Source: an uncultured Ruminococcus sp.
GTDB taxonomy: Bacteria > Bacillota > Clostridia > Oscillospirales > CAG-272
DNA length: 64,000 nt
Direction of reading: 5' to 3'
Assembly: GCA_964558485.1 (NCBI GenBank)
Contig: CAZLED010000003.1
Coordinates: forward strand, 4,571-68,570
In this document: positions 1 to 61,334 of the stretch, in pieces
Layout of the letters: every line of letters starts with the position of its first letter
Numbering within the stretch: the first letter of the stretch is position 1
Made by a program: the position numbers and the translations under genes
Notes under the pieces: model-generated
The model's database searches: none
Told to the model about the DNA's origin: nothing
What the model saw: only the letters and a program-made list of their open reading frames with translations

Positions 1-1777
<1,777 letters not shown>

Positions 1778-1789
1778 CTACCCCATAGG

Positions 1790-2290
1790 CTCCGGCGTTT
1801 GGGCGTGGGCAAATCGGTCGGAGTAGTGGCTGACGTGTGGTGGTCTGATGCGGCAAGGTTTTGGTAAAACGAATGTAGGGCGGCGACCCATGTATGGGTC
1901 AACCTACCCTTGGTATTCTCATCGCTCTCAGGTGACAACATCCCGCCGTCGAACGTCTATGTTTGGATTGTATTGGTTGGTACAAACGTACATTTTAATG
2001 TATAAATTTCGTATATCTGATACCCATGTAGAATACCAATTTATTTGGCAACAGAATGTTTGTTTTGGTGAATACCCATATCGTACGGTCGAACACGTCA
2101 GACGGCGGGATGTTGTCAGCCAAGAGCGATGAGAATACCAAGGGTAGGGTCATCCCGCCCTACATGCGGCGTACAAAATCGATTTTGTAGCGATACCCAT
2201 GAAGGAACACCCCAAAACCCCAACGCCAGTTTGAAACCAACCCCCATCGTGGGTTCCGCAGAAAGGGAGTACAAACTTCCTTCCCCCTTG
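1790..2290. repeat. Dispersed intergenic REP/REPIN-like element, copy A
   Basis: 48-bp inverted repeat 1903-1950 / 2101-2148 with 3 mismatches, and outer ATGTAGGGCGG/CCGCCCTACAT at 1873-1883 / 2155-2165. Homologous to about 35.9-36.3, 57.6-58.1 and 61.3-62.1 kb. Confidence 0.85.
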
Positions 2291-2475
2291 TTACCCACAT
2301 TATACTCCATGCGCCCCGTAAAATCCATAGGGATTTGGTGAATTTTTTCTTTTGGTGAAAAATCAAACGATCTTGTGGACTGTCCGGCGGCGTATTCGGC
2401 TTGCATAAAAAATAATCACCAAAAAATGACGTAAATTTTTGTGACAACATACAGCGAAAAATGTCTCTGTAGGAA

Positions 2476-2611: not shown

Positions 2612-4108
2612 ATGATGAAAATGAAAAAACACACCCTCGCTGCTCTGTTTTTAGCACTTGTGACGCTGTTGCCGTCTCTGCTGGCTTGCTCCTCCGGCGG
2701 CGGTACCGAAACCACACCTACGGCAGATCTGTCTACCGATACCACAGCCGTAGTGGAGACCGAAGAGACCGAGCTGATGCCCGACATCCCGGAGCTGGAC
2801 TTCGGCGGTGAACAGTTTATGTTCCTGACCTCTGACGAAAACGACGACAATGGCGTGGACTGGATGACCTATGACGTGTGGGTAGAGAACACTACCGGTG
2901 ACGTGATCAACGACGCTGTGTTCGAACGGAACCTGTATCTGGAAGACACCTACAATATCAAGATGGCAGAGTTCCAGGGCGTTACGGATACCTTGGCAAA
3001 ACAGGACGTGACGGCCGGTACCGGTGAATACGATGCCGTCATGACCAATATCGTAGACGCAGCCAGCATGGCACAAAGTGGGTATACACTCAGTATGTAC
3101 GACCTGCCCTATGTGGATCTGACCAAGCCGTGGTGGGACCAGGGCTGTGTAGAAGACCTGGAGCTGTACGGCGAGATCTACTTTGCCACCGGTGACATCA
3201 CGGTCATCGACAACGACGCCACCTGGGTGCTGATGTTCAATAAGCAGATCTACCAGGAGAACGGCTTTGACAATATTTATGACAGAGTAAGAGCCTACGA
3301 CTGGCTGTATGACGATATGCTGGAAATGATGTCTGCTGCTGCCAGAGACGTAAACGGTGACGGCAAAATGGCACACGCCGATGACATTTTCGGCTTCGCT
3401 ACCTCGGATGACTCCGGTCAGGGTCTGTTCTATGCATCCGGTGAAAAGCTGGTGTACAAGGACAGCGATGGTTCTCCGTACCTGTGTGAATCGGCAGACC
3501 GTATGGTCGGCGTGGTAGAAAAGGCCGGTAAGATGATGTCCGACAAGAACGTGACCGTGCTGACCTCTGTGGTTGGTACCTCCGATGGTCTGCGGCAGCT
3601 GTTTGAAGAGGGCAGAGCACTGTTCTTCGGCGAAGTTATGCAGTGCATCACCCGTATGCGGGAAAGCGAAACGGACTTCGGTCTGATTCCGTGGCCTCGT
3701 TATGACGAAGACCAGGACGGCTATCACCACTTTGTACATGGTACTGCCGGTAAGGTCGTGACCATCACCTCCGCTGTACAGGATCAGGAAATGTCCGGTG
3801 CGATCATCGAAGCCATGGCAGCCAAGTCCATGTACACCCTGACCCCGGCCTACTACGACGTAGCCATCACCCGGAAGTCCATGAGAGACGAAGAATCCAT
3901 CGAAATGCTGGATATCATCCTGCAGGACAGACGGTATGACCTGGGCTATATCTACAACTGGGGCAGCCTGTACTCCAACATTCGTACCATCATTATCGGT
4001 GGTAAGGACACCTTTGCTTCCACTTGGGAAAAGTCTCAGAACTCCTTCAACACCGCTATGGAAAAGACCATGACCAAGTACGAAGAACTGGCCGCACAGC
4101 GTGGCTGA
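2612..4108 (+). CDS. Extracellular solute-binding lipoprotein (carbohydrate ABC type, orphan)
   Basis: Lipobox LLAC, T/E-rich linker, DFGG / DLTKPWWD / G.ALF / DFGLIPWP motifs. RBS GGAGG. Confidence 0.85.
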   Translation: MMKMKKHTLAALFLALVTLLPSLLACSSGGGTETTPTADLSTDTTAVVETEETELMPDIPELDFGGEQFMFLTSDENDDNGVDWMTYDVWVENTTGDVINDAVFERNLYLEDTYNIKMAEFQGVTDTLAKQDVTAGTGEYDAVMTNIVDAASMAQSGYTLSMYDLPYVDLTKPWWDQGCVEDLELYGEIYFATGDITVIDNDATWVLMFNKQIYQENGFDNIYDRVRAYDWLYDDMLEMMSAAARDVNGDGKMAHADDIFGFATSDDSGQGLFYASGEKLVYKDSDGSPYLCESADRMVGVVEKAGKMMSDKNVTVLTSVVGTSDGLRQLFEEGRALFFGEVMQCITRMRESETDFGLIPWPRYDEDQDGYHHFVHGTAGKVVTITSAVQDQEMSGAIIEAMAAKSMYTLTPAYYDVAITRKSMRDEESIEMLDIILQDRRYDLGYIYNWGSLYSNIRTIIIGGKDTFASTWEKSQNSFNTAMEKTMTKYEELAAQRG

Positions 4109-4168
4109 TCCAATCAATACTCGAACCGGTATGGGGACGACCTGTACCGGCAGCGCATAAAATCGAAC

Positions 4169-7701: not shown

Positions 7702-7890
7702 TGGTATACCTCTCCCAAGGTGACCGTGACCAGGCCCACCTTGCTATTCTCATATTTCGCATCTATACAACCATTATACCATGGATCGTCAAAAAATGCA
7801 ACCGTTTTTTTCCCCATGGAGAAAATCAAATGTGCGGTCGTCCACATAGAAAACCCACAATATTTTTGCCGATACCCTTTGCCAATACTC

Positions 7891-7919
7891 TTGACAAGGC
7901 GGCAAAAAGGTGCTATAAT
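7891..7919 (+). promoter_or_regulatory. SigmaA promoter of the candidate antitoxin sRNA
   Basis: TTGACA-17 nt-TATAAT with extended -10 TG. Confidence 0.85.
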
Positions 7920-7924
7920 AGAAA

Positions 7925-8080
7925 CAACAAGAGGTGGTCGTCAAACCACCCCATGTTGCTGGTAGCCCAACAAAACGGCTGCCACACTTATGTACAAAAT
8001 TAGGAATTACGAGTTGGAAGTTATCGCTTCCGTCTCAACCCAGTGAGCCATTCTGTGTGGGACAGACGGCTCACTTTTTC
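7925..8080 (+). ncRNA. Candidate type I antitoxin sRNA, about 155 nt
   Basis: Own promoter, three hairpins (GGTGGT/ACCACC, TGGTAGCC/GGCTGCCA, GGAAG/CTTCC) and terminator GTGAGCC...GGCTCAC-TTTTT. Convergent with the peptide ORF. Confidence 0.65.
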
Positions 8081-8190
8081 ATTGTATCATCGTAATGAAA
8101 TTCCTTGTACAACTTGTAGCTATACCAAACGATAGCTAAAAATGCACCGATGCACTTCAAAACGTAGTATGCAACTTCTAAAGCAAACAT
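8071..8190 (-). CDS. Small hydrophobic peptide, candidate type I toxin (39 aa)
   Basis: Manual translation MFALEVAYYVLKCIGAFLAIVWYSYKLYKEFHYDDTMKK. RBS GAAAGGGGG upstream. Confidence 0.7.
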   Translation of the reverse strand: MFALEVAYYVLKCIGAFLAIVWYSYKLYKEFHYDDTMKK

Positions 8191-8330
8191 TTCTATGTGA
8201 CCCCCTTTCACGAGAAATCCCGTGAAGAAAGCACTCGAAACATCCATCACCTCCTCTCCGGCAGAAACGAACTTTCTTGCACGGTTCAGGGGACAGCCGT
8301 CTTATATGTTTGTTGGATTATCCATGGGAT

Positions 8331-8360
8331 ATTATAGCATATATTGGCGGTATTTGTCAA
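8331..8360 (-). promoter_or_regulatory. SigmaA promoter of the candidate toxin mRNA
   Basis: Minus strand TTGACA-18 nt-TATAAT with extended -10 TG. Confidence 0.75.
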
Positions 8361-16258: not shown

Positions 16259-16511
16259 GATGCGAAGAGGATTTTGGATGACCCTGCTGTTTGTCTGCGC
16301 CGGGATCGTGGTAGGGTCCATGGTGGGTGAGCTGACCGCCGGTGTCCCGGTGCTGCAGTGGCTGTCCTACGGCCTGGATTTCGGTACCGCCGCACCGGTG
16401 ACTGTGGACCTGCACGTCCTGGAATTGACCTTCGGCATCACCGTACGGATCACCGTATCGCACATCGTTTTTGTGGTCCTGGCGATCATTGTGGGACGGA
16501 GAGTGGAGTAA
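16251..16511 (+). CDS. DUF4321-like small membrane protein
   Basis: Two hydrophobic segments, a conserved position after dut, and L.L.V...TFG pattern. Confidence 0.65.
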   Translation: MREMRRGFWMTLLFVCAGIVVGSMVGELTAGVPVLQWLSYGLDFGTAAPVTVDLHVLELTFGITVRITVSHIVFVVLAIIVGRRVE

Positions 16512-16515
16512 GGCA

Positions 16516-16550
16516 GAAGTCAGAGATCAGAAGTTAGAAGTCAGAAGTGT
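16516..16550 (+). repeat. Heptamer tandem array (GAAGTYA)n
   Basis: GAAGTCA GAGATCA GAAGTTA GAAGTCA GAAGTGT. Similar arrays at 6702-6743(-), 18673-18714, 25092-25119 and 51158-51185. Confidence 0.8.
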
Positions 16551-18662: not shown

Positions 18663-18853
18663 GGGAAAGGCAGAAGTGAGAGGGCAGAGGTCAGAAGTTA
18701 GAAGTTAGAAGTCAGACGTACGAAAATGCAATGCAAGTGTGGGGCAGAGGTTAAAGCGGGCGTTTGTGTAAGGACACGGAAATGTACCTGTGAAGCATGA
18801 AGTATGTTGGAAACGTTCGTGCTTGACCGCTCTGTTCTAAAAATAAACCAATT

Positions 18854-29960: not shown

Positions 29961-31430
29961 TTATTCCTGCTCGGTTTTCTCTAGTGCTTCGTAGAACTTG
30001 TCGATGGTGGATTGCGCTGCTTGTTCGTTCTTGGCGTAGAAAGAAGCAAAGTCGGCAGAGTTTTGCTGGATCACAAGGTTGCCAACGGTGTAGAACAGGT
30101 TGTTGAACCCATTGGAAAAGCCAAAGTAGTTACCGCCGATCTCGTAGGCAATGGTGTCAAAGAGAATGTCCAACATATTCTTTGTGTCCTCGTCTCGTGC
30201 CAGCTTGCCGGACAAGGTCACATCGTAGAAGGTCGGAATGACTTCGTTTTCGCTTTCCCAAGAGAGGTATTCCAGCGTGGCTCCCACCATGTCCGGGTTC
30301 TGGATGGTCAGCGGGATGCACATGAGGTCGCCCCAATCCTGCGAGATGTAGTTTTCCTGCTCCTCGTCATATTTCGGATAGGGCAGGATCCCCACGTCGA
30401 TCTCACAATCCCGGTACACGTCCGCCATGGTCACAGCACCCAGACGGAACAAAATGCGTCCCGTGTGCATCTGGATCATGTCTTCCTCGGCAAATCCATT
30501 GGGAATAAACACCGTACCGGGGTTGGAGACCATTCTGTGCATGGATTCGATAATGTGAAAAGTCTTTTCCGTGTTCATGGCAAGCTGGATCTTCCCATCG
30601 TTGCCAAAGCGTGTGATGAATTGATCCGCACCGGTCACAAAGGGAATGTATTTGGAGGTCTCGTCGGCGGTCACACCGGCAATGTCATCGTCCTTGGTGA
30701 ATTGCCCGTCCCCATTGAGGTCCCGTGTGGCAGAGATCGCCATATCTACAAATTTGTCGATGGTCCACTTGCCTTCGTATACCAGCTCATAGGGATTGTC
30801 CATGTTGTTGTCTACGATCATTTCCTTGTTGAAGAAAACGGCATCGGGTGTGGGGATCACATAATCGGATACGCCATAGTAGGTGTTTTTCCCCAACCGC
30901 AGCATATCCATACGTTCCCGGTTCCACCAATCCGCTGTCATATCAATATTGGGCAGGGTGTCCAGGTTGTACAGCATCCCGGTGGTCACCAGTTCGGCCA
31001 CGCTTGCAATGCAGTGGATCAAGCACAGGTCGTACACATCGTCTCCGGCGGTCACGGTGTTCTTGATCTTATTCACCACCTCGGCGTATTTAAGATCCAA
31101 TTCCTGTGCGATGTCCACGTTGAGAAATTCCTCCGTTTTGATCATACGGCTGAAAATGGCATCGTTCATGGCGTCCCCGTTGGCTTCTTCGGCAAATAGA
31201 TAGTTGGAATGCCAGTCCCATGCGTTGATCAGGAAGTTAGCACCGCCAAAGTCCAGGTCTTCGGAAAGCCCGTGCATGGCTCGTGTCTCTTCGGGCTCGG
31301 TTTCGGTAACGGTGGTATCGGTGCCGGTGGTATCCGTATGGGTTGTGGTTTCGTCCTGTTCGGTTTTGCTGCAGGCTGCCATGGAAAGAAGCATAGCCAT
31401 CAGCAGCAGGGCAGCGGTGATCTTTTTCAT
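29961..31430 (-). CDS. Extracellular solute-binding lipoprotein (tandem copy 1)
   Basis: Lipobox MAAC, DFGG, WWN, GILPYPKYDE.Q and ARDED motifs. Confidence 0.88.
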   Translation of the reverse strand: MKKITAALLLMAMLLSMAACSKTEQDETTTHTDTTGTDTTVTETEPEETRAMHGLSEDLDFGGANFLINAWDWHSNYLFAEEANGDAMNDAIFSRMIKTEEFLNVDIAQELDLKYAEVVNKIKNTVTAGDDVYDLCLIHCIASVAELVTTGMLYNLDTLPNIDMTADWWNRERMDMLRLGKNTYYGVSDYVIPTPDAVFFNKEMIVDNNMDNPYELVYEGKWTIDKFVDMAISATRDLNGDGQFTKDDDIAGVTADETSKYIPFVTGADQFITRFGNDGKIQLAMNTEKTFHIIESMHRMVSNPGTVFIPNGFAEEDMIQMHTGRILFRLGAVTMADVYRDCEIDVGILPYPKYDEEQENYISQDWGDLMCIPLTIQNPDMVGATLEYLSWESENEVIPTFYDVTLSGKLARDEDTKNMLDILFDTIAYEIGGNYFGFSNGFNNLFYTVGNLVIQQNSADFASFYAKNEQAAQSTIDKFYEALEKTEQE

Positions 31431-31619
31431 AAAAATCCCTTCTTTGATTCCAGCAGAATTTGTTCAAACGTCACTATAGCATAAAATTGTGAACGGCTTT
31501 AGGGGGGGAGTGAATAAAAAATGAACAAACGAAATCTTGTGTATTTGCACAAAATTACACCTATATTTTTGTGCAAAAAAACACCGCCGATCCCCAATAG
31601 AATCAGCGGTGTGGTTATG

Positions 31620-33086
31620 TTAGCCTTCGATTTTTTCAAGAGCTTCGTAGAACTTGTCGATAATAGCTGTTGCGGATTTTTCGTTCTTGGCGTAGAAAGA
31701 GGCAAAGTCAGCGGAGTCTTGCAGGATGATCATGTTGCCGACTACGTAAAAGAGCTGGTTGAAGGCACCGGAGAATCCAAAGTAGTTGCCACCCACTTCA
31801 TAGGCTACATTGGAAAAGAGCAGGTCGAGCATATTCCGGGAGTCTTCGTCACGAGCCAGCTTGCCGGACAGGGTCACATCATAGTACGCCGGTACGACTT
31901 CGTTTTCGCTTTCCCAAGAGAGGTATTCGATCGTTGCACCCACCATTTCGGTCTGCTGGATGGTCAGCGGAATGCACATCAGCGAACCGCCATCGTTGGA
32001 GATGTAGTTTTCCTGGGCTTCATCATACTTCGGGTACGGCAGGAAACCAACGTCCACTTCACAGTCTCTGTACACGTCTGCATCCGTGATCACGCCCAGT
32101 CGGAACAAAATGCGACCGGTGTCCATCTGCACCATGTCTTCCTCTGCCATCCCATCCGGTACGAATACGGCACTGGCGGTGTTGATCATATTGTAGAGGA
32201 CCTCCAAAATGTGGAAGGTCTTCTCCGTGTACATATCCAGCTTCCGTCGTCCATCGGCTGTGGCAGAGGTCAAAAATTGTCCGGCAGCGGTCATAAACGG
32301 TACGTATTTGGAGTACTCGTTGCAGGTCATGCCCCAAACGTCATCGTCCTTGGTGTATTGTCCATCGCCGTTCACGTCACGGGATACGGTCAGGCACATA
32401 TTCGAAAACTTGTCCAGTGTCCATTTTCCTTCGTATACCAGCTCGTAGGGGTTCTCCATGTTGTTGTCCACGATCAATTCCTTGTTGAAGAAGATCGCAT
32501 TCGGCGTGGGGATCACGTAATCGGATACGCCATAGTAGGTGTTCTTGCCCAGCCGCAGCATATCCATACGGTCACGGTTCCACCATTCCGCATCCAGATC
32601 CACGTTGGGCAGGATATCAAAATTGTACAGCATCCCTCTGGAGACCAGCTCCGACACACTGGCCATGCTGTGGATCAGACACAGGTCGTACACATCGTCT
32701 CCGGCGGTCACGGTGTTCTTGATCTTGTTTACCACCTCGGCGTATTTCGGCTCCAGTTCCTGCACGATCTTGACGTTCAGAAATTCTTCCGTTTTGATCT
32801 TCCGATTGTACAGGGCATCGTTCATGGCATCCCCGGTAGCTTCTTCCGCAAACTGATAATTGGAATGCCAGTCTCGTGCGTTGATATTGAATTCCTCGCC
32901 GCCAAAGTCCAAGTCTTCGGAAAGCCCGTGCATGGGTCGGGTCTCCTCGGGCTCGGTTTCGGTAACGGTGGTATCGGTGCCGGTGGTATCCGCATGGGTT
33001 GTGGTTTCGTCCTGTTCGGTTTTGCTGCAGGCTGCCAACGAAGCCAGCATAGCTACGAGCAGCAGGACGGCAGTGACTCTTTTCAT
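31620..33086 (-). CDS. Extracellular solute-binding lipoprotein (tandem copy 2)
   Basis: Start MKRVTAVLL, lipobox LAAC. Close paralogue of copy 1. Confidence 0.88.
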   Translation of the reverse strand: MKRVTAVLLLVAMLASLAACSKTEQDETTTHADTTGTDTTVTETEPEETRPMHGLSEDLDFGGEEFNINARDWHSNYQFAEEATGDAMNDALYNRKIKTEEFLNVKIVQELEPKYAEVVNKIKNTVTAGDDVYDLCLIHSMASVSELVSRGMLYNFDILPNVDLDAEWWNRDRMDMLRLGKNTYYGVSDYVIPTPNAIFFNKELIVDNNMENPYELVYEGKWTLDKFSNMCLTVSRDVNGDGQYTKDDDVWGMTCNEYSKYVPFMTAAGQFLTSATADGRRKLDMYTEKTFHILEVLYNMINTASAVFVPDGMAEEDMVQMDTGRILFRLGVITDADVYRDCEVDVGFLPYPKYDEAQENYISNDGGSLMCIPLTIQQTEMVGATIEYLSWESENEVVPAYYDVTLSGKLARDEDSRNMLDLLFSNVAYEVGGNYFGFSGAFNQLFYVVGNMIILQDSADFASFYAKNEKSATAIIDKFYEALEKIEG

Positions 33087-33305
33087 AGTGGGATCCTCCT
33101 GTATTTTATTGCGCCCCAGTGTAGTGGCATCAGTATACCGCAAAATTGTGAACGGTTCTCGGGGGGGTAGTGAATAAAAAATGAACACGAGAAATCTTGT
33201 AGATATGCCCAAATTTCATCGGGATATCTTCTATTTTTGTGCAAAAAAACACCGCTCGTTGGGGAAGCGTTGGTTTTCCAACAAAGCGGTGTGGGTTGGC
33301 AGCGG

Positions 33306-34775
33306 TCAGCCTTCGATCTTTTCCAGACCCTTGTAGAAGGAATCGATGGTGGACATGGCCGATTTTTCTTGCTTGGCGTACCAGGAGGCAAAGTCGCCGG
33401 TACTGTTGATCACCAGCTCGGCGATGGGGTTGTACATGGAGCTGAACCCACTGGAGAAGGCGAAGTAGTTGACGCCTACCTCATAGGCGATGGTGTCGAA
33501 CAAAATGTCGATCATGGCACGGGAGTCTTCGTCTCTGGCCAGCTTGCCTGCCAGCAGCACATCGTAATAGGCCGGGATCACCGTGTCGGCACTGTACCAG
33601 GACAGCAGCTCCAGCACGGCACCCACCATGTCCGGATCCTGGATCGTGGCCGGTACTGCCATCAGACCACCCCAGTCCATGGAGATGTAATTCTCCTGTG
33701 CCGCATCGTACTTGGGATAGGGCAGGATCCCCACATCGATCTCGTAGTCCCGGAAGACCACGGCACCGGCAATGGTATCCAACCGGAACAACAGTCTGCC
33801 GGAATCAAATTCGAACTGGGCAGATTCATCCTCGGCCGTGGGCTTGAATACGGCACCGGCTTTATCCGTGAGCTTCTGCATCTTTTCGATGATGGAGATG
33901 GTCTTCTCCGTGTTCAGTGCCAGCTCTACCCGACCGCTGTCGTTCTTCTGGGTCAGGAACTGGTTACAGCCGGTCTGGATGCTCAGATACTTGGAGGTCT
34001 CCGTAGCGGACAGGCCGTAGTTGTCGGTGTCCGGATCCATTTGCCCGTCTCCGTTTACGTCTCTGGTGAAGGTCAGCGCCATATCGATCATGGTGTCCAG
34101 CGTCCATTTGCCTTCGTACACCAGCTCATAGGGATCCTCCATGCCGTAGTCCGTGACGATATTTTTGTTGAAATACACCGCATAGGGGCAGGGGATCATG
34201 TAGTCGGACACGCCAAAGTAGGTGTTCTTGCCCAGTCGCAGCACGTCCATTTGGGCCCGGTTCCACCAATCGGCAGTCAGATCCACATTGGGCAGGTTAT
34301 CATAGTTGTACAGCATCCCACCGGTGACCAGCTCGGATACGCCCTGGATGCAGTGGAGCAGGACCAGCTGGTACACGTCGTCGCCGGCGCTGATGGCCTT
34401 TTTGGCTTCGGACACTACGTCAGCGATGTATCCGGCATTGTATTGGGTCAGGTCCACGTTCAGATATTCCTCGGTTTGAATGGTACGGGTGAAGATGGCA
34501 TCGTTCATAGCGTCCCCGGTGGCTTCATCGGCAAAGAAATAGTATTGATAGCCCTGCCATTCCGGGTAGGCGATATTGAAGGTGGCGCCGCCAAAGTCCA
34601 GCGTATCCGGGATCTGGTGCATGGGTCTGGTCTCTTCTGTCTCGGTGACGGTGGTGTCGGTGGAAACGGCATTGGTGGTGTCTGCGGCGTTGGTGGTCTC
34701 TACCTCTGTTTGTCCACAAGCGGCCAGAGAGAGGAGCATCGAGAACAGCAGCAGGGTGACGGTGATCTTGCGCAT
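33306..34775 (-). CDS. Extracellular solute-binding lipoprotein (tandem copy 3)
   Basis: Start MRKITVTLL, lipobox LAAC, same motif set. Confidence 0.88.
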   Translation of the reverse strand: MRKITVTLLLFSMLLSLAACGQTEVETTNAADTTNAVSTDTTVTETEETRPMHQIPDTLDFGGATFNIAYPEWQGYQYYFFADEATGDAMNDAIFTRTIQTEEYLNVDLTQYNAGYIADVVSEAKKAISAGDDVYQLVLLHCIQGVSELVTGGMLYNYDNLPNVDLTADWWNRAQMDVLRLGKNTYFGVSDYMIPCPYAVYFNKNIVTDYGMEDPYELVYEGKWTLDTMIDMALTFTRDVNGDGQMDPDTDNYGLSATETSKYLSIQTGCNQFLTQKNDSGRVELALNTEKTISIIEKMQKLTDKAGAVFKPTAEDESAQFEFDSGRLLFRLDTIAGAVVFRDYEIDVGILPYPKYDAAQENYISMDWGGLMAVPATIQDPDMVGAVLELLSWYSADTVIPAYYDVLLAGKLARDEDSRAMIDILFDTIAYEVGVNYFAFSSGFSSMYNPIAELVINSTGDFASWYAKQEKSAMSTIDSFYKGLEKIEG

Positions 34776-34870
34776 GAAAGTATCCTCCATAAGTGAATGA
34801 ATGGGGTCGGCGGACAAAAAACTCCCGCAGGAAAAACGGGAGCTTCTTGTTATAGAGAAAGGAGATGATT

Positions 34871-35683
34871 TTATCTCTTCTTGGAAACGGCGTAACCAGC
34901 GGCGGATACGATAGCAGCAACAGCGGCTACGATACCGGCGTCGAAGGTCTGGGGAGCAGCAGGAGCTTCAACAGCAGCATCTACCACTTCAGCTTCGGTT
35001 TCAACGGGAGCTTCGGTCTCCGGTTCGGGATAAGAAACCTCGTCGTCGGAGAAGGTCAGCGTGATGTCAGCAGCCTGAGAACCGGAAGCGTAACCGGTAC
35101 CGGGGTGCGCATCGTGGGTGACCATATCGTTGACCTGCATGGACATATTGATGGTGCCGCCAACTTCCAGGTTTGCAACGGGCATAGCGTATTCTACGAT
35201 GTAACCGTCGTCGGTCTCGGAGGTAGCGTACTTGCAGTCAGCAGATTCGAAGGTGGGCGTGCCGTTTACGTTCTGTACAAAGAAGGTCAGACCGGTAGCT
35301 TCGGCGTGGGACTTCCACTTGCCGGAACCTTCGTCGTACCACAGCTCAGCGGCGTCGGCCTGCCAGTTGGTGGGGTTCGATTCGTAGACGTCGGCGCCAA
35401 CGCTGATCACATCGGAGTCGGTAACAACAACAGCAACATACAGATAGTCGTCGTCCCACAGGAAGTAGGAGGTAGCGGACATATCAACGTCACCGTCCCA
35501 GTCCCACTTGTGGAAAGCAGGGTTGCCCAGGGTCTGGGTAGCAGACTGGGTATAGATCTCGTCCAGTTCACCGTCCACAACGGGCGTACCCTTCAGCACA
35601 TCGGTGGTGTCAGCGGCAGCAACAGGAGCGATCATAGTAGCAGCCAGCATAGCGACCAGCAGCAGAGAAGCGAGTTTCTTCAT
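34871..35683 (-). CDS. Secreted DOMON/CBM9-like protein with APQTFD sorting signal
   Basis: Signal peptide, TPVVDGELD, WDDDYLYVAV.V.D, then APQTFD, a hydrophobic helix and a KKR tail. Confidence 0.72.
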   Translation of the reverse strand: MKKLASLLLVAMLAATMIAPVAAADTTDVLKGTPVVDGELDEIYTQSATQTLGNPAFHKWDWDGDVDMSATSYFLWDDDYLYVAVVVTDSDVISVGADVYESNPTNWQADAAELWYDEGSGKWKSHAEATGLTFFVQNVNGTPTFESADCKYATSETDDGYIVEYAMPVANLEVGGTINMSMQVNDMVTHDAHPGTGYASGSQAADITLTFSDDEVSYPEPETEAPVETEAEVVDAAVEAPAAPQTFDAGIVAAVAAIVSAAGYAVSKKR

Positions 35684-35887
35684 AATAGTTGTCTCCTAAT
35701 AATAGACATTTGTAATATGCAAGGCGATCGACATCCACCTGGCTATGTCAGTATTATATCATTTTTGTTAACATAAATCAATGGTCATATACAACAAGAT
35801 ATCCAGTTTTTGTTTGTGTATAGTAGACAAAACACAGCTACAAATGTGGCGGACAGTTGAGGGGAATGGCGCATTTCCTTAATATAA

Positions 35888-36400
35888 AACCAAGGGTAGG
35901 TTGACATATAGGAAAACATGGTTACGTTTCCGGGTGTCGCTACAAGAACGATATTGTACGCCGAATGTAGGGCGGGATGACAACTACTTGACAGAACCAA
36001 CAATTTGGTATTCAACATCCCGCCGTCGAATGTGTTAGACCGTACGGTATGGGTATTGGGTACACGTTCGTCCTATATCAAAATGATTTTGTATCCCACA
36101 TTGGTATCGGCTGCGCAAAATCTCAAATCAAAATGTACGTTTGCACAATACCAATATAATACAGACATAGACGTTCGGCGGCGGGATGTCGTCAGCCAAG
36201 AGTGATGAGAATACCAAGGGTAGGTCATCCCGCCCTACTTTCGTTTTACCAAAACCTTGTCGCATCAAATCCCCATATCGGAATGCACAAAAGCGGTACG
36301 TCTGGGCAGCCTGATCAAAAAACGGGATTACCAAAGCAAACGAGATTTTTCTGCTGATATCGCCCCTACAGTGAATAGTGGAGTTTTCCCAACTTCGCCG
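35888..36400. repeat. Dispersed REP/REPIN-like element, copy B
   Basis: Perfect 15-bp inverted repeat GTAGGGCGGGATGAC at 35967-35981 / 36224-36238 and the 48-nt core at 36177-36224. Colinear with the reverse complement of copy A. Confidence 0.85.
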
Positions 36401-36525
36401 TAGGTGAATGTTGATTACCCTCTGAGGACTGCCTGTACAAGGCAGTCATTCCGATACTTATCGAAAAACAAAATTGGAACAAGCCAAACGCCAGTGGAAT
36501 ACAAAAAAGGGGGTCAAGCCCCCTT

Positions 36526-38307
36526 TTATACCAGATAGCGTTTGATTTTTTTCGCCGAGGTCTTCTCGAACTCCGTCTTGCGGAACTCCAGCTTGTGGAT
36601 CTGCTTGAAGGAAGGCAGACGCTTGTTCAGCGCCGTGATCTCCTTCTGGATCTCCTTGTAGATGTCCGTGTCCACGTCGGCGAACTTTTCCGCAAAGGCA
36701 TCCTGGTTCGGGAAGATCACGGCCGTCAGCTTGGTGGAGCCGTCCTCTTCCACACGTCCTACCACCACCGATTCGGCGATCAGATCGATCTTGCCTAAGT
36801 ATTCTTCGATCTCCTCCGGGAACACGTTCTTGCCGTTGTCCAGCACGATCACCGACTTCATCCGGCCCGTGATGGTGATGTAGCCATCCTTGTCCATATA
36901 GCCCACGTCTCCGGTCCGGAACCAGCCGTCGTCCGTGAAGGCGTCTCTTGTGGCCTCCGGATCGTTGTAATAGCCCAGCATCACGTTGTCGCCTTTGACC
37001 TGGATCTCCCCGGTGATATGCCCGTCTTCCGTCAGGTCCGATCCGGTGATCCGTATGTCGCAACAGGGCACGGAGGGTCCGATGGAACCACACTTCCGCT
37101 TGAAATACGGCGTGACGGCCAGCAGCGGCGCACATTCGGTGATCCCGTACCCTTCGTACAGGGAAATGCCAAAGGATTCAAAGATCGGGATCAAAGACGG
37201 ATCCAGTGCCGCACCACCGCAGATGATCTTTTTCAGATTGCCGCCGAATGCAGCCCGCACGTCCCCAAACAGCTTGTCGGACACATCGATCCCAAACCGG
37301 TTCAAAAATCCGGCCAGCTTCAGACCACCGGTCAGCGCCTTGTCCTTGCCAGACCGCTTGGCTTCCGACAGGATCTTTTTGTACATGGTGTTCACGAACA
37401 TGGGCACCAGCACCAGACCCGTGGGCTTGTATTCCTTGAAGCTGTTCAGCACGTGCCGCAGGGAATCGTTGATGCAGATCAGACAGCCCAGGTTCACAGC
37501 CGCCATCATGCAGCACAGCTCATAGGTGTGGTGGATGGGCAGCACAGATACCAGCACGTCGTCGGAGTTGAAATCCACCGCAGCATCGGCCGAGGTGACC
37601 GCAGCGTAAATGTTCTGCTGGCTCAGCATGACGCATTTGGAGGAGCCGGTGGTACCGGAGGTGAACAGCATCTCTGCCATTCTCTTGGTATCGATGGGCA
37701 GATCCAGCAGCACCTGCCGCATGGTCGCCACGTCCACACCGGCATTTGTCCCCAGAGTCAGCAGCGTATCAAAGCCATAGCAGCTTGCCGGTGCATCTGT
37801 GGTCGGATCAAAGGAAATCGTGAAGCGCACAGACGGATGGTCAGTTGCCAGATCGTGGAAGGTGTCGTTCATGGAGGCCGAATGGATCAGGCAGATCGCA
37901 TCCACCGAGGTGAGAAAATCCCGGGTGACGGAAGGATCCAGCTCCTTGTCCATGGGGATCGCCACACCGCCGGCCAGCAGGGTACCCAGATAGGATGCGA
38001 TCCACATGGGAGACGTTTCCCCAACGATGCCAATGCGGATGTTTTCGTTCAGGTGGTCGGTGATGGTATCGTCGTATTTCTGGCAGGTGCGGATGAGACC
38101 ATCGGCGAAGCGGTACACCATGGAGGTGAATTCCGTGTAGGTCAGGGAATGCTTTTCGCCTTTTTCCTTCCAGATGAACATGGTCTTGTCACCCCAGGTC
38201 TCCAGAGATTGGCAGAACTGGGATACATTTTCTATGGTATTGTAGATCCGTTCCCGCTTCTTGTGGCTGCGGACGGTGTATTGCTTCTTCATGGCAGTAT
38301 CTCCCAT
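36526..38307 (-). CDS. Long-chain fatty acid-CoA ligase (AMP-binding)
   Basis: FTSGTTG..K, YEGYGITE and WFRTGDVG. Confidence 0.92.
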   Translation of the reverse strand: MGDTAMKKQYTVRSHKKRERIYNTIENVSQFCQSLETWGDKTMFIWKEKGEKHSLTYTEFTSMVYRFADGLIRTCQKYDDTITDHLNENIRIGIVGETSPMWIASYLGTLLAGGVAIPMDKELDPSVTRDFLTSVDAICLIHSASMNDTFHDLATDHPSVRFTISFDPTTDAPASCYGFDTLLTLGTNAGVDVATMRQVLLDLPIDTKRMAEMLFTSGTTGSSKCVMLSQQNIYAAVTSADAAVDFNSDDVLVSVLPIHHTYELCCMMAAVNLGCLICINDSLRHVLNSFKEYKPTGLVLVPMFVNTMYKKILSEAKRSGKDKALTGGLKLAGFLNRFGIDVSDKLFGDVRAAFGGNLKKIICGGAALDPSLIPIFESFGISLYEGYGITECAPLLAVTPYFKRKCGSIGPSVPCCDIRITGSDLTEDGHITGEIQVKGDNVMLGYYNDPEATRDAFTDDGWFRTGDVGYMDKDGYITITGRMKSVIVLDNGKNVFPEEIEEYLGKIDLIAESVVVGRVEEDGSTKLTAVIFPNQDAFAEKFADVDTDIYKEIQKEITALNKRLPSFKQIHKLEFRKTEFEKTSAKKIKRYLV

Positions 38308-49981: not shown

Positions 49982-51157
49982 ATGGAACAGGTACGTTTTG
50001 GTGTTGTCGGGATCGGTAACATGGGTTCCGGACACGTGAAAAACCTATTCGAGGGCAAGGTCCCCGGCGCCGTTCTGGCAGCAGTCTGTGACCTGAAGCA
50101 GGATCGTCTGGATTGGGTCAAGAGCTTCTGTGGTGACGATGCAGATATCGCCTATTTCCAGGACTACAAGGAAATGCTGGCTTCCGGCAAGATCGATGCC
50201 GTGATGATCGCCACGCCCCACTATTTCCATCCCATCATCGGTATGGACGCATTTGATGCCGGTATCCATGTGCTCAGCGAAAAGCCCATTGGCGTATACA
50301 CCAAGAAGGTATACGAATTTATGGCAAAGGCCGAAGAGCATCCGGAGCTGACCTTTGGGATCATGTACAACCAGAGAACCGACCACTTCTACCAGAAGAT
50401 GCGTGAAATGGTACAAAACGGCGAGCTGGGTGAGTTGAAGCGCTGCATCTGGATCATCACCGACTGGTACCGTACCCAGGCATACTACAACTCCGGCGGA
50501 TGGAGAGCGACCTGGGCAGGCGAAGGTGGCGGTGTGCTGATGAACCAGTGTCCCCACAACCTGGACCTGTGGCAGTGGATCTTTGGTATGCCCAAGCGGA
50601 TCTTTGCCACCTGCGCACTGGGCAAGTACCACGACATCGAAGTAGAGGATGACGTGACCGCTATGGCCGAATATGAAAACGGCGCCACCGGCGTGTTCAT
50701 CACCACCACCGGCGAATATCCCGGCACCAACCGTCTGGAGATCACCGGTTCCAAGGGTAAGCTGGTATACGAAGCCGGCAAGCTGCGCTACACCAAGCTG
50801 GGCGTAGACGAACGGGAATTCACCTTCTCCACCGACCAGGGCTTTGCTTCCATTCCGTTGGAGACCACGGAACTGGAGATCGAAGGTGGTCACGGCGAAC
50901 AGCACGTTGGTATCCTGAAGAACTTCACCAACCACATCCTCCACGGCGAGCCGCTGCTGGCACCCGGTAAGGAAGGCGTGAACGGTCTGTCCATCTGCAA
51001 TGCCATGATGATGTCCTCCTGGACGAACCAGTGGGTAGACGTCAAGAACGACGGCGAAGCATTCTGGACACTGCTGCAGGAAAAGATCAAGACCTCCCGT
51101 GCCAAGGAAGACTCCGGTGTGGTATTCGACACCGAAGGCACCTATGGGAATAAGTAA
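49982..51157 (+). CDS. Gfo/Idh/MocA family oxidoreductase
   Basis: GVVGIGNMG, IATPHY.H, EKP, GGGVLMNQCPH.LD. Confidence 0.92.
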   Translation: MEQVRFGVVGIGNMGSGHVKNLFEGKVPGAVLAAVCDLKQDRLDWVKSFCGDDADIAYFQDYKEMLASGKIDAVMIATPHYFHPIIGMDAFDAGIHVLSEKPIGVYTKKVYEFMAKAEEHPELTFGIMYNQRTDHFYQKMREMVQNGELGELKRCIWIITDWYRTQAYYNSGGWRATWAGEGGGVLMNQCPHNLDLWQWIFGMPKRIFATCALGKYHDIEVEDDVTAMAEYENGATGVFITTTGEYPGTNRLEITGSKGKLVYEAGKLRYTKLGVDEREFTFSTDQGFASIPLETTELEIEGGHGEQHVGILKNFTNHILHGEPLLAPGKEGVNGLSICNAMMMSSWTNQWVDVKNDGEAFWTLLQEKIKTSRAKEDSGVVFDTEGTYGNK

Positions 51158-51240
51158 GAGATAAGAAGTCAGAAATAAGAAGTGGCAGACTTACACTATG
51201 GTGTGGGTCTGCCGCTTTTTTGTTGCGTTGGGAATCGTAT

Positions 51241-57501: not shown

Positions 57502-57584
57502 ATCATTTTTCCTTTCGGTCTGTATTTTTTTATGATCTCTAACTTGCACATATGGGGGTAAGGGTGTCCAACATTCGCTTCCAG

Positions 57585-58075
57585 CGAAGTTGCTCCCTTT
57601 TACCGGACCCGCATTGGTTTCAACTGGCGTTGGGCGTATACCTATGGAGCGACTCCATTTGCCACGTTTTGGGTTTGTATTGGCGTACGGCGTGTTTCAA
57701 TGCTGAATGCCAAATTATTTGACGTGCAATGTTGTGCGTTGGCACAAATAACACACATCGAAAATAATATCGATAATGGGATATCTAATTTGACGGATAC
57801 CTATAACGTACGGCATATCACATTCGACGGCGGGATGACCTACCCTTGGTATTCACATCGCTCTTAGCTTACGACATCCCGCCGTCGAACAAATTGGTAT
57901 TCTCTATGGGTATCCACCAAACCGAATATCCCGCCGCCAAGCGTGTTTCGATGCACGGTATGGGTATTAAATACCCAGCATTCCACCGGAAGTGTGTAGT
58001 CCCAAGCCCAAACGCAGTTTGAAACCAATGGGGTTCCGCAGAAAGGGGATCGATCCCCTTGCCCCTCTTACCCCT
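57585..58075. repeat. Dispersed REP/MITE-like element, copy C
   Basis: 48-nt core inverted at 57839-57886, TTTTCAACTGGCGTTGGG at 57618-57635, GGGTTCCGCAGAAAGGG at 58031-58047. Confidence 0.82.
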
Positions 58076-61322: not shown

Positions 61323-61334
61323 AAAAGGGAGTTC

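Follow-up and report, generated by a model that had tools for sequence, protein, structure and literature searches.

The window analyzed here, a 64-kb stretch (64,000 nt) of a contig from an uncultured Ruminococcus sp. of the class Clostridia, carries intergenic blocks that contain copies of one repeat family. The repeated entity is a hairpin unit of ~65 nt with a GTAG motif at one foot of its stem, and sequencing depth in gut metagenomes suggests a family copy number of ~100 per genome. We favor, with a probability of roughly 0.55, the reading that these units form a species-specific family of repetitive extragenic palindromic (REP) DNA of the kind found in bacterial interspersed mosaic elements (BIMEs), moved by a predicted HUH enzyme of the REP-associated tyrosine transposase (RAYT) type. 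The REP/BIME-like character is supported by the anatomy of the units, their abundance and their restriction to one lineage; the mobilization step by an HUH/RAYT enzyme is plausible, at about one in two. An earlier note on this DNA, made from its letters only, had proposed a family akin to REPs, BIMEs or REP doublets forming hairpins (REPINs). Our analysis agrees with it on the modular, dispersed and non-coding architecture of GTAG-footed hairpins in inverted pairs and arrays, but not on the size of the element.

The hairpin unit and its copies

The earlier note had placed a 48-nt core at five sites, and a degenerate pattern recovered all of them with 0-2 mismatches each, at 1903-1950(-), 2101-2148(+), 36177-36224(+), 57839-57886(-) and 61608-61655(+). 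Against these five cores in the window, 100 dinucleotide-preserving shuffles yielded none. The cores lie in blocks that we call A to D. As had been described, block A contains two cores in inverted orientation with a 150-nt spacer between them, and the region 1870-2170 folds as a single long hairpin (-86.2 kcal/mol, z = -13.4). Alignment confirmed that copy B is colinear with the reverse complement of A: A 1838-2198 pairs with B 36275-35932 on the opposite strand, with 74.7% identity over 363 nt. The perfect inverted pair reported to bound copy B is also present, as GTAGGGCGGGATGAC at 35967-35981(+) and 36224-36238(-). All copies lie between genes, and a Pfam search of the spurious open reading frames within the blocks matched no family; a coding reading was rejected on this ground, and the intergenic, non-coding status of the blocks stands. 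A tRNA finder and Rfam scans of the blocks and the window returned nothing real. The motif GTAGGG occurs 3.0 times per kb in the blocks versus 0.2 times per kb outside them, a 15-fold enrichment.

On one strand, the unit reads 5'-(CGAAT)GTAG-GGCGGGATG-AC...loop(35-41 nt)...A-CATCCCGCC-GTCGA-3'. GGCGGGATG and CATCCCGCC form the stem, whose foot is GTAG on one strand and TCGAC on the complementary one. Units are 63-78 nt long, with a stem of 9-14 bp and a loop of 35-41 nt. Their feet fall into two sharp classes: R2, tgtag-GGCGGGATG-ac, mostly with CGAAT before it, and R1, tcgac-GGCGGGATG-t. Of the 10 complete units compared, in the window and on the metagenome contigs L005 and L020, nine contain the R2 sequence, the exception being unit C, which has TCGAC at both feet. 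Within the R2 foot of five of the 10 units, a small palindrome (GACCCATGTATGGGTC or CCCCATGTATGGGG) is nested, resulting in a 33-nt GTAG...CTAC 'double-foot' palindrome, GTAGGGCGGCGACCCATGTATGGGTCAACCTAC, of canonical REP size. The loop of type-1 units is the 48-nt core, whereas in type-2 units the loop is equally long but differs in sequence, TGAATACCAAATTGTTGG...AAGTAGTT, with examples at 35967-36029 in the window, L005:1427-1510 and L020:5560-5640.

Type-1 units in the window comprise A1 (1875..1952, minus strand), which has a long-form GTAG foot with the nested palindrome GACCCATGTATGGGTC; A2 (2101..2163, plus strand), which consists of GACGGCGGGATG, a 41-nt loop and CATCCCGCCCTAC; B-right (36176..36238, plus strand); C (57824..57888, minus strand), with a perfect 14-bp stem (-20.7 kcal/mol, z = -6.1); and D (61607..61669, plus strand), with an uncompensated G-to-A change in the 3' stem arm. 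The type-2 unit B-left occupies 35967..36029 on the minus strand, with its GTAG foot at 35967. This second unit type is a piece of the family additional to the five cores, as are a truncated core at 35889-35905 and R1-like feet at 57926-57940 and 61554-61566. When folded as single-stranded DNA, six of seven units gave z-scores of -2.1 to -6.1, while unit A1 folded no better than shuffled sequence. The GGCGGGATG/CATCCCGCC stem appeared in the folds of six of the seven units tested, the lowest-energy fold of unit D being paired otherwise. Stem-breaking changes in the units lack compensation.

Unit orientation alternates. In A and B, R1 feet face each other across an AT-rich spacer of ~150 nt (1953..2100 in A, with a homologous spacer in copy B), and R2 feet face each other across a conserved linker of ~90 nt in copy F (L020:5390-5840), in copy E (L005:1270-1560) and at several metagenome joints. 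This alternation with two conserved spacers generates inverted pairs, as in A and B, or arrays. Units are single in C and D and stand in other orders in E and F.

Copy number and distribution

To estimate abundance, we used contig depth in public gut-metagenome runs holding the organism, i.e., five DNA runs from three studies. The depth summed over contigs was 25-70 times that of flanking single-copy genes for the core in three runs and, likewise in three runs, 75-140 times for the feet with their adjoining linkers. As is typical of REP sequences, the family is therefore both high-copy (25-140 times single-copy depth in the five DNA runs) and extragenic, all copies seen being intergenic. Each run also contained 81-111 contigs that fit the stretch of block B only in part, mostly on repeat units. 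The family is thus not limited to a few copies, an outcome that the earlier note had named as speaking against its proposal.

The terminator arms that accompany the units in the blocks reach only ~5-25 times single-copy depth. This shows that the hairpin units, and not whole blocks, are amplified, and the replicating entity looks like either the ~65-nt unit or the ~290-360-bp unit pair. The element of 300-750 bp that had been proposed was not recovered as such; the blocks are mosaics that include less abundant modules, such as the terminator arms.

The presence of the blocks was compared with sister species, which we found via the flanking proteins. At site A, the spacer between ligA and a solute-binding lipoprotein (SBP) gene measures ~340-380 bp in the sisters and the whole ~530-bp block A is absent (L012/L013, with LigA at 93%; L014/L015, at 87%), with the promoters on both sides conserved. 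At site B, ~40 nt stand in place of the ~650-690-bp block B (L018, with the acyl-CoA ligase at 92%; L019, at 88%), and L019 shares its sample with a contig of the window's species. Two sister species thus have an empty site at A and two have one at B, so that the copies do not persist at shared positions among relatives. The truB neighborhood next to block D is non-syntenic in relatives at 82-84% identity, so that site D provides no clean empty site. Compared with five cores in the 64 kb of the window, ~85 kb of sister DNA contained no family motifs outside coding chance matches. The family reached its suggested number of ~100 copies after this species split from the closest sampled sister species.

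Wider searches gave a consistent picture. The strict core pattern GGCGGGATG-N18-30-ACCAAGGGTAGG found only chance matches in 185,579 species-representative genomes and JGI metagenomes; hits in a Sphaerochaeta ABC permease gene and in one unrelated contig were rejected as chance. There was no match to this pattern in viral contigs (IMG/VR), and a BLAST search with copy B against plasmid and phage records returned nothing.

The blocks look fixed within the species: assemblies made independently contain A and D at 99.8-100% identity (D at 99.8% on contig L029), and no empty-site alleles were detected at A and B in three DNA runs or at C and D in two. The only contig skipping block A belongs to a sister species. 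Consequently, there is no evidence for ongoing movement.

Short-read contigs of the species end inside the repeat (L007-L009). On the MEGAHIT contig L005 (= L021), positions 8079-8335 contain the repeat core, through which the holA/DUF896 locus is connected to the window's SBP gene. In another sample, the DUF896 gene lies beside an AI-2E transporter gene, with copy F at that position (L020:5355-6000). The difference reflects either a chimeric assembly or genuine recombination between copies of the repeat.

Proposed movement of the units and alternative explanations

According to our favored model, the units would fold on single-stranded DNA, where a predicted RAYT-type (TnpA-REP) Y1 HUH enzyme, encoded once elsewhere in the genome, would cut and rejoin them, reading the GTAG foot. 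Under this model, the Y1 gene would be present once, with GTAGGGCGG or GTAGGGAAC palindromes near it. A further palindrome family of the same species, which we call REP2, may depend on the same kind of enzyme. Its short form, CT-GTAGG-GAACGGTC-TT-GACCGTTC-C, is a canonical GT[AG]G palindrome that also occurs as GTGG variants. One 24-nt copy (GTAGG-GAACGGTC-TT-GACCGTTC-C) lies in the window at 28082..28105 on the plus strand, and more REP2 sites are found on L020 (2390-2600, 3500-3690, 4255-4300 and 7795-7890) and L005 (6193-6290). The long form, GT[AG]GGGAAC-CGCACAT..ATGTGCAC-TTGACCGTTCC-GTGCGGCAGC, includes a nested CAT..ATG palindrome and stands in tandem arrays with a period of ~65 nt (L020:3500-3690 and elsewhere). 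That unrelated palindromes have the GTAGGG tag in common is the strongest indirect hint in these data at a GTAG-reading enzyme.

The family resembles the REPs and BIMEs of E. coli in several respects. In both, GTAG stands at the 5' foot of a G+C-rich stem (GTAGGCCGGAT... in E. coli and GTAGGGCGGGAT... here), and the repeats are strictly extragenic, often just 3' of stop codons. Like the E. coli system with its Y, Z1 and Z2 units and its S/L and s/l/r linkers, the family has more than one unit type, alternation and two conserved linker classes; such mosaics of alternating subtypes with conserved linkers are present in A, B, E, F and the metagenome joints. They differ in that the E. coli units measure 35-40 nt in total, compared with the ~65-nt unit with a 35-41-nt loop and the linkers of 90-150 nt described here, and in that the E. 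coli enzyme is TnpA-REP, a group 2 RAYT, whereas our host is a member of the Clostridia. Families of this type typically reach hundreds of copies (10.1101/2021.07.10.451892), compared with an order of ~100 here. With the REPINs of Pseudomonas fluorescens and other bacteria, which are linked to RAYT groups 2 and 3, the family shares the combination of two inverted units into one long hairpin with a variable spacer (A and B), a species-specific sequence and the absence of coding capacity; REPINs, however, are ~100 bp long with palindromes of ~14 bp (10.1101/2021.07.10.451892), as opposed to pairs of 290-360 bp.

Two further designs are matched by parts of the repeat complement. The group-3 REP of Stenotrophomonas maltophilia is a 23-nt sequence with GTAG, an 8-bp perfect palindrome and a 3-nt loop, cleaved by TnpA-REP at CT (PMC8266576). 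The co-resident REP2, CT-GTAGG-GAACGGTC-TT-GACCGTTC-C, has almost exactly this design; the likeness concerns REP2 only and not the family with the 48-nt core, and REP2 also has the long CAT..ATG form. The 'double-foot' REPs of TnpA-Y1 subclass 2.4 (PMC6006769) have GTAG at one end and CTAC at the other, like the sequence GTAGG-TCATCCCGCC-CTAC of our units and a palindrome on contig L024. In our units, however, the feet bracket a single stem arm of the large unit instead of the whole hairpin. The L024 palindrome is a third double-foot palindrome, perfect, at L024:10-45 (CTGTAGGGGCGATTC-AC-GAATCGCCCCTACAG), on a short contig with the same DUF896 protein, and the window sequence CTGTAGGGGCGAT at 36369(-) is similar to its start.

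Several observations weigh against a REP family moved by a RAYT. A tblastn search with IS200 TnpA and E. coli YafM as queries found no Y1/HUH gene (E > 0.4) in the 64-kb window or the early loci, a weak screen given that these are a small part of the genome. The unit of ~65 nt with its 35-41-nt loop exceeds the 20-40 nt that canonical REPs measure in total, only the long R2 foot (33 nt) and REP2 (24 nt) being of that size, and the unit pairs of ~290-360 bp exceed the ~100 bp of REPINs (10.1101/2021.07.10.451892). The REP-linked RAYT groups 2 and 3 are known mainly from Proteobacteria, and the RAYTs reported from Clostridia belong to group 1, which has few associated repeats (PMC5581495). A survey of GTAG/CGTC REPs does not mention Firmicutes (PMC3733652). 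The sisters lack whole mosaics of 0.5-0.7 kb rather than single units, and DNA runs at four sites revealed no presence/absence polymorphism within the species. On balance, we tentatively suggest, at somewhat less than even odds, that this Clostridia species has an active or recently active REP-RAYT system with two co-resident GTAGGG-tagged families, one of them with unusually large units (~65 nt) in BIME-like arrays and expanded to ~100 copies. If true, this would imply either a horizontally acquired REP-linked RAYT or a Clostridia group-1 RAYT that multiplies repeats.

The alternative that survives best, although we regard it as unlikely, is a classical miniature inverted-repeat transposable element (MITE), in which the 290-360-bp pair would be moved as double-stranded DNA by the DDE transposase of an insertion sequence (IS) with the same ends. 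Bacterial MITEs such as Correia/CREE of Neisseria, RUP and BOX of Streptococcus pneumoniae and bcr1 of Bacillus cereus have fixed ends and target-site duplications. Our family is similar to them in being non-coding, 100-400 bp long, intergenic and co-transcribed, in having inverted ends, in supplying terminators or promoters and in varying between related species. The 15-20-bp perfect sequence (CGAAT)GTAGGGCGGGATGAC is a candidate terminal inverted repeat; in copy B, perfect inverted ends of 15 bp stand 257 bp from each other, the colinearity of A and B extends over 361 bp, and both the size and the absent coding capacity fit. On the other hand, neither A nor B shows a target-site duplication at its ends; the flanks there are conserved linker modules, and the insertion boundaries relative to the empty sites are blurred by divergence. 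The units are recombined in many orders: some stand alone or in tandem, the unit of C has two feet of the same type, and E and F show the reverse order, unlike a fixed two-ended element. In addition, the modules differ in depth (75-140 times single-copy for the feet but 25-70 times for the core), and neither the window nor the fetched loci contain a transposase gene.

Slightly less probable still is that no dedicated enzyme exists and that homologous recombination, gene conversion and replication slippage between palindromes spread and homogenized the blocks. Modules are indeed shuffled among loci, the central module of C is inverted compared with D between inverted flanks, and in one assembly copy F is fused with sequence flanking copy A (L005 versus L020). 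Such processes alone, however, do not account for ~100 copies at unrelated intergenic positions where the sisters have empty sites, and they leave the GTAGGG tag shared by unrelated palindromes unexplained.

We consider it improbable that the units are a non-autonomous IS200/IS605 derivative, i.e., a palindrome-associated transposable element (PATE) for which an ordinary IS200-type TnpA, and not a domesticated RAYT, would be the enzyme. Elements of the IS200/IS605 type (subclass 1.1) are common in Clostridia (PMC6006769), a class that this source mentions only for IS200-type transposases and many IS200 copies, and their chemistry likewise uses single-stranded hairpins and makes no target-site duplication. 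Their left and right ends, however, form hairpins that are asymmetric and have specific tetranucleotide targets, unlike symmetrical GTAG-footed alternating units; Rfam revealed no IS605-linked RNA, and tblastn of the window and the early loci found no TnpA or TnpB gene.

A functional structured RNA family (small RNAs or cis-regulators) kept for its RNA fold would account for the stable hairpins and for the RNA contigs that cover unique block sequence (in run X14, for example, 57661-57836 with depth 86 and 61633-61864 with depth 21), but it is highly improbable, given that no Rfam family matches (Rfam 15 gathering scores; E-value mode gave only generic long-hairpin or chance matches), that copies stand in either orientation relative to flanking genes, that stem changes are uncompensated, that sites A and B are empty in sisters and ~85 kb of sister DNA holds no member, and that, per copy, the RNA depth roughly equals that of an average gene. 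An identity as riboswitch, ribozyme or small RNA was accordingly rejected (no covariation, both orientations, absence from sister species), and so was an Rfam match to MIR7533, which is a generic long hairpin.

Blocks and host genes

Block A (1757..2290, no strand assigned) is located between ligA(-) and the SBP gene(+), where it separates the -10 box of ligA (~2300-2305, minus strand) from the ribosome-binding site of that gene. It includes a terminator-arm module (2212..2285, minus strand; CCAACGCCAGTTTGAAACC box and hairpin) that is common to blocks C and D. Block B (35835..36525) has the acyl-CoA ligase stop codon (gene at 36526-38307, minus strand) on one side and, on the other, the conserved promoter of the gene at 34871-35683 (minus strand), which encodes a CBM9-like protein; a CCAAACGCCAGTGGAATAC box with a strong terminator hairpin (36484..36527, minus strand; depth 5-25 times single-copy) directly follows the ligase stop codon. 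Block C (57562..58063) follows the gene for a 1017-residue protein and precedes a beta-lactamase-fold gene; inverted terminator arms at 57562-57634 and 58007-58060 form its boundaries. Block D (61323..62096) lies between PGA_cap(+) and truB(-), with terminator arms at 61327-61408, 61977-61995 and 62067-62087. Inverted terminator arms, consisting of a hairpin and a CCAACGCCAGTTGAAAC box, form the limits of blocks A, C and D and immediately follow stop codons, and the central module of C is inverted relative to that of D between these inverted flanks. Module S, the 25-mer GTCAGCCACTACTCCGACCGATTTG, is identical at 1810-1834(-), 28120-28144(+) and 61731(+); the copy at 28120-28144(+) adjoins a REP2 copy.

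As side effects, the blocks would place terminators after stop codons, lengthen the 5' untranslated region of ligA, be transcribed and break short-read assemblies. The ligA leader (window 1745-2311) is ~560 nt long compared with ~45-55 nt in the sisters, block A adding ~530 nt. Since the block lies between the -10 box and the ribosome-binding site, ligA is either read through ~530 nt of structured repeat or transcribed from a new promoter; a promoter scan of block A detected none inside it. Block B puts a strong terminator directly 3' of the ligase stop codon, where the sisters have none.

The earlier note had suggested RNA data as a check for transcription, and metatranscriptome contigs do cover unique parts of blocks C and D. 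Because the contigs are unstranded and the data of low coverage, they show only that the blocks are transcribed. In run X14, the bin just upstream of the region 57661-57836 (depth 86) had zero depth. Metatranscriptome contigs from two runs start at ~57649-57661 and are deeper than the neighboring genes, possibly representing a separate small transcript (57649-57836). Just upstream of this start, within the left terminator arm of block C, is a promoter-like site, TTGGTT-17-TATACC.

Other repeats accompany the GTAG families. Heptamer-like arrays of GTCAGAAGT/GTCAGATGTCAGA are a third abundant class of intergenic repeat; they flank REP2 arrays and follow several stop codons, at L020:2330-2380, 3690-3720, 3800-3830, 4125-4160, 7735-7780 and 7895-7930 and, in the window, at 16510-16548, 18667-18733, 25079-25117 and 51145-51183. 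Between repeat arrays on L020 (3985-4080) lies a putative tRNA gene (GGTGGCTGAGCTGG...TTCGAATCCCACC), apparently with its own consensus promoter and terminator. The window also contains, at 29961-34800, three tandem paralogous solute-binding lipoprotein genes with 70-85% DNA identity and a period of 1656-1683 bp.

For metagenomics, the repeats explain why short-read assemblies of this species are broken into contigs of 1-19 kb with occasional misjoins, which bears on the quality of metagenome-assembled genomes. The family places REP/BIME-like repeats with large units and GTAG feet in a species of the Clostridia. Work on REP/REPIN-RAYT systems has been almost confined to Proteobacteria, and a GTAG-footed family in Clostridia would extend their known range. 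As a young, homogeneous and abundant family with empty-site sister species in the same samples, it could show how such repeats invade a genome.

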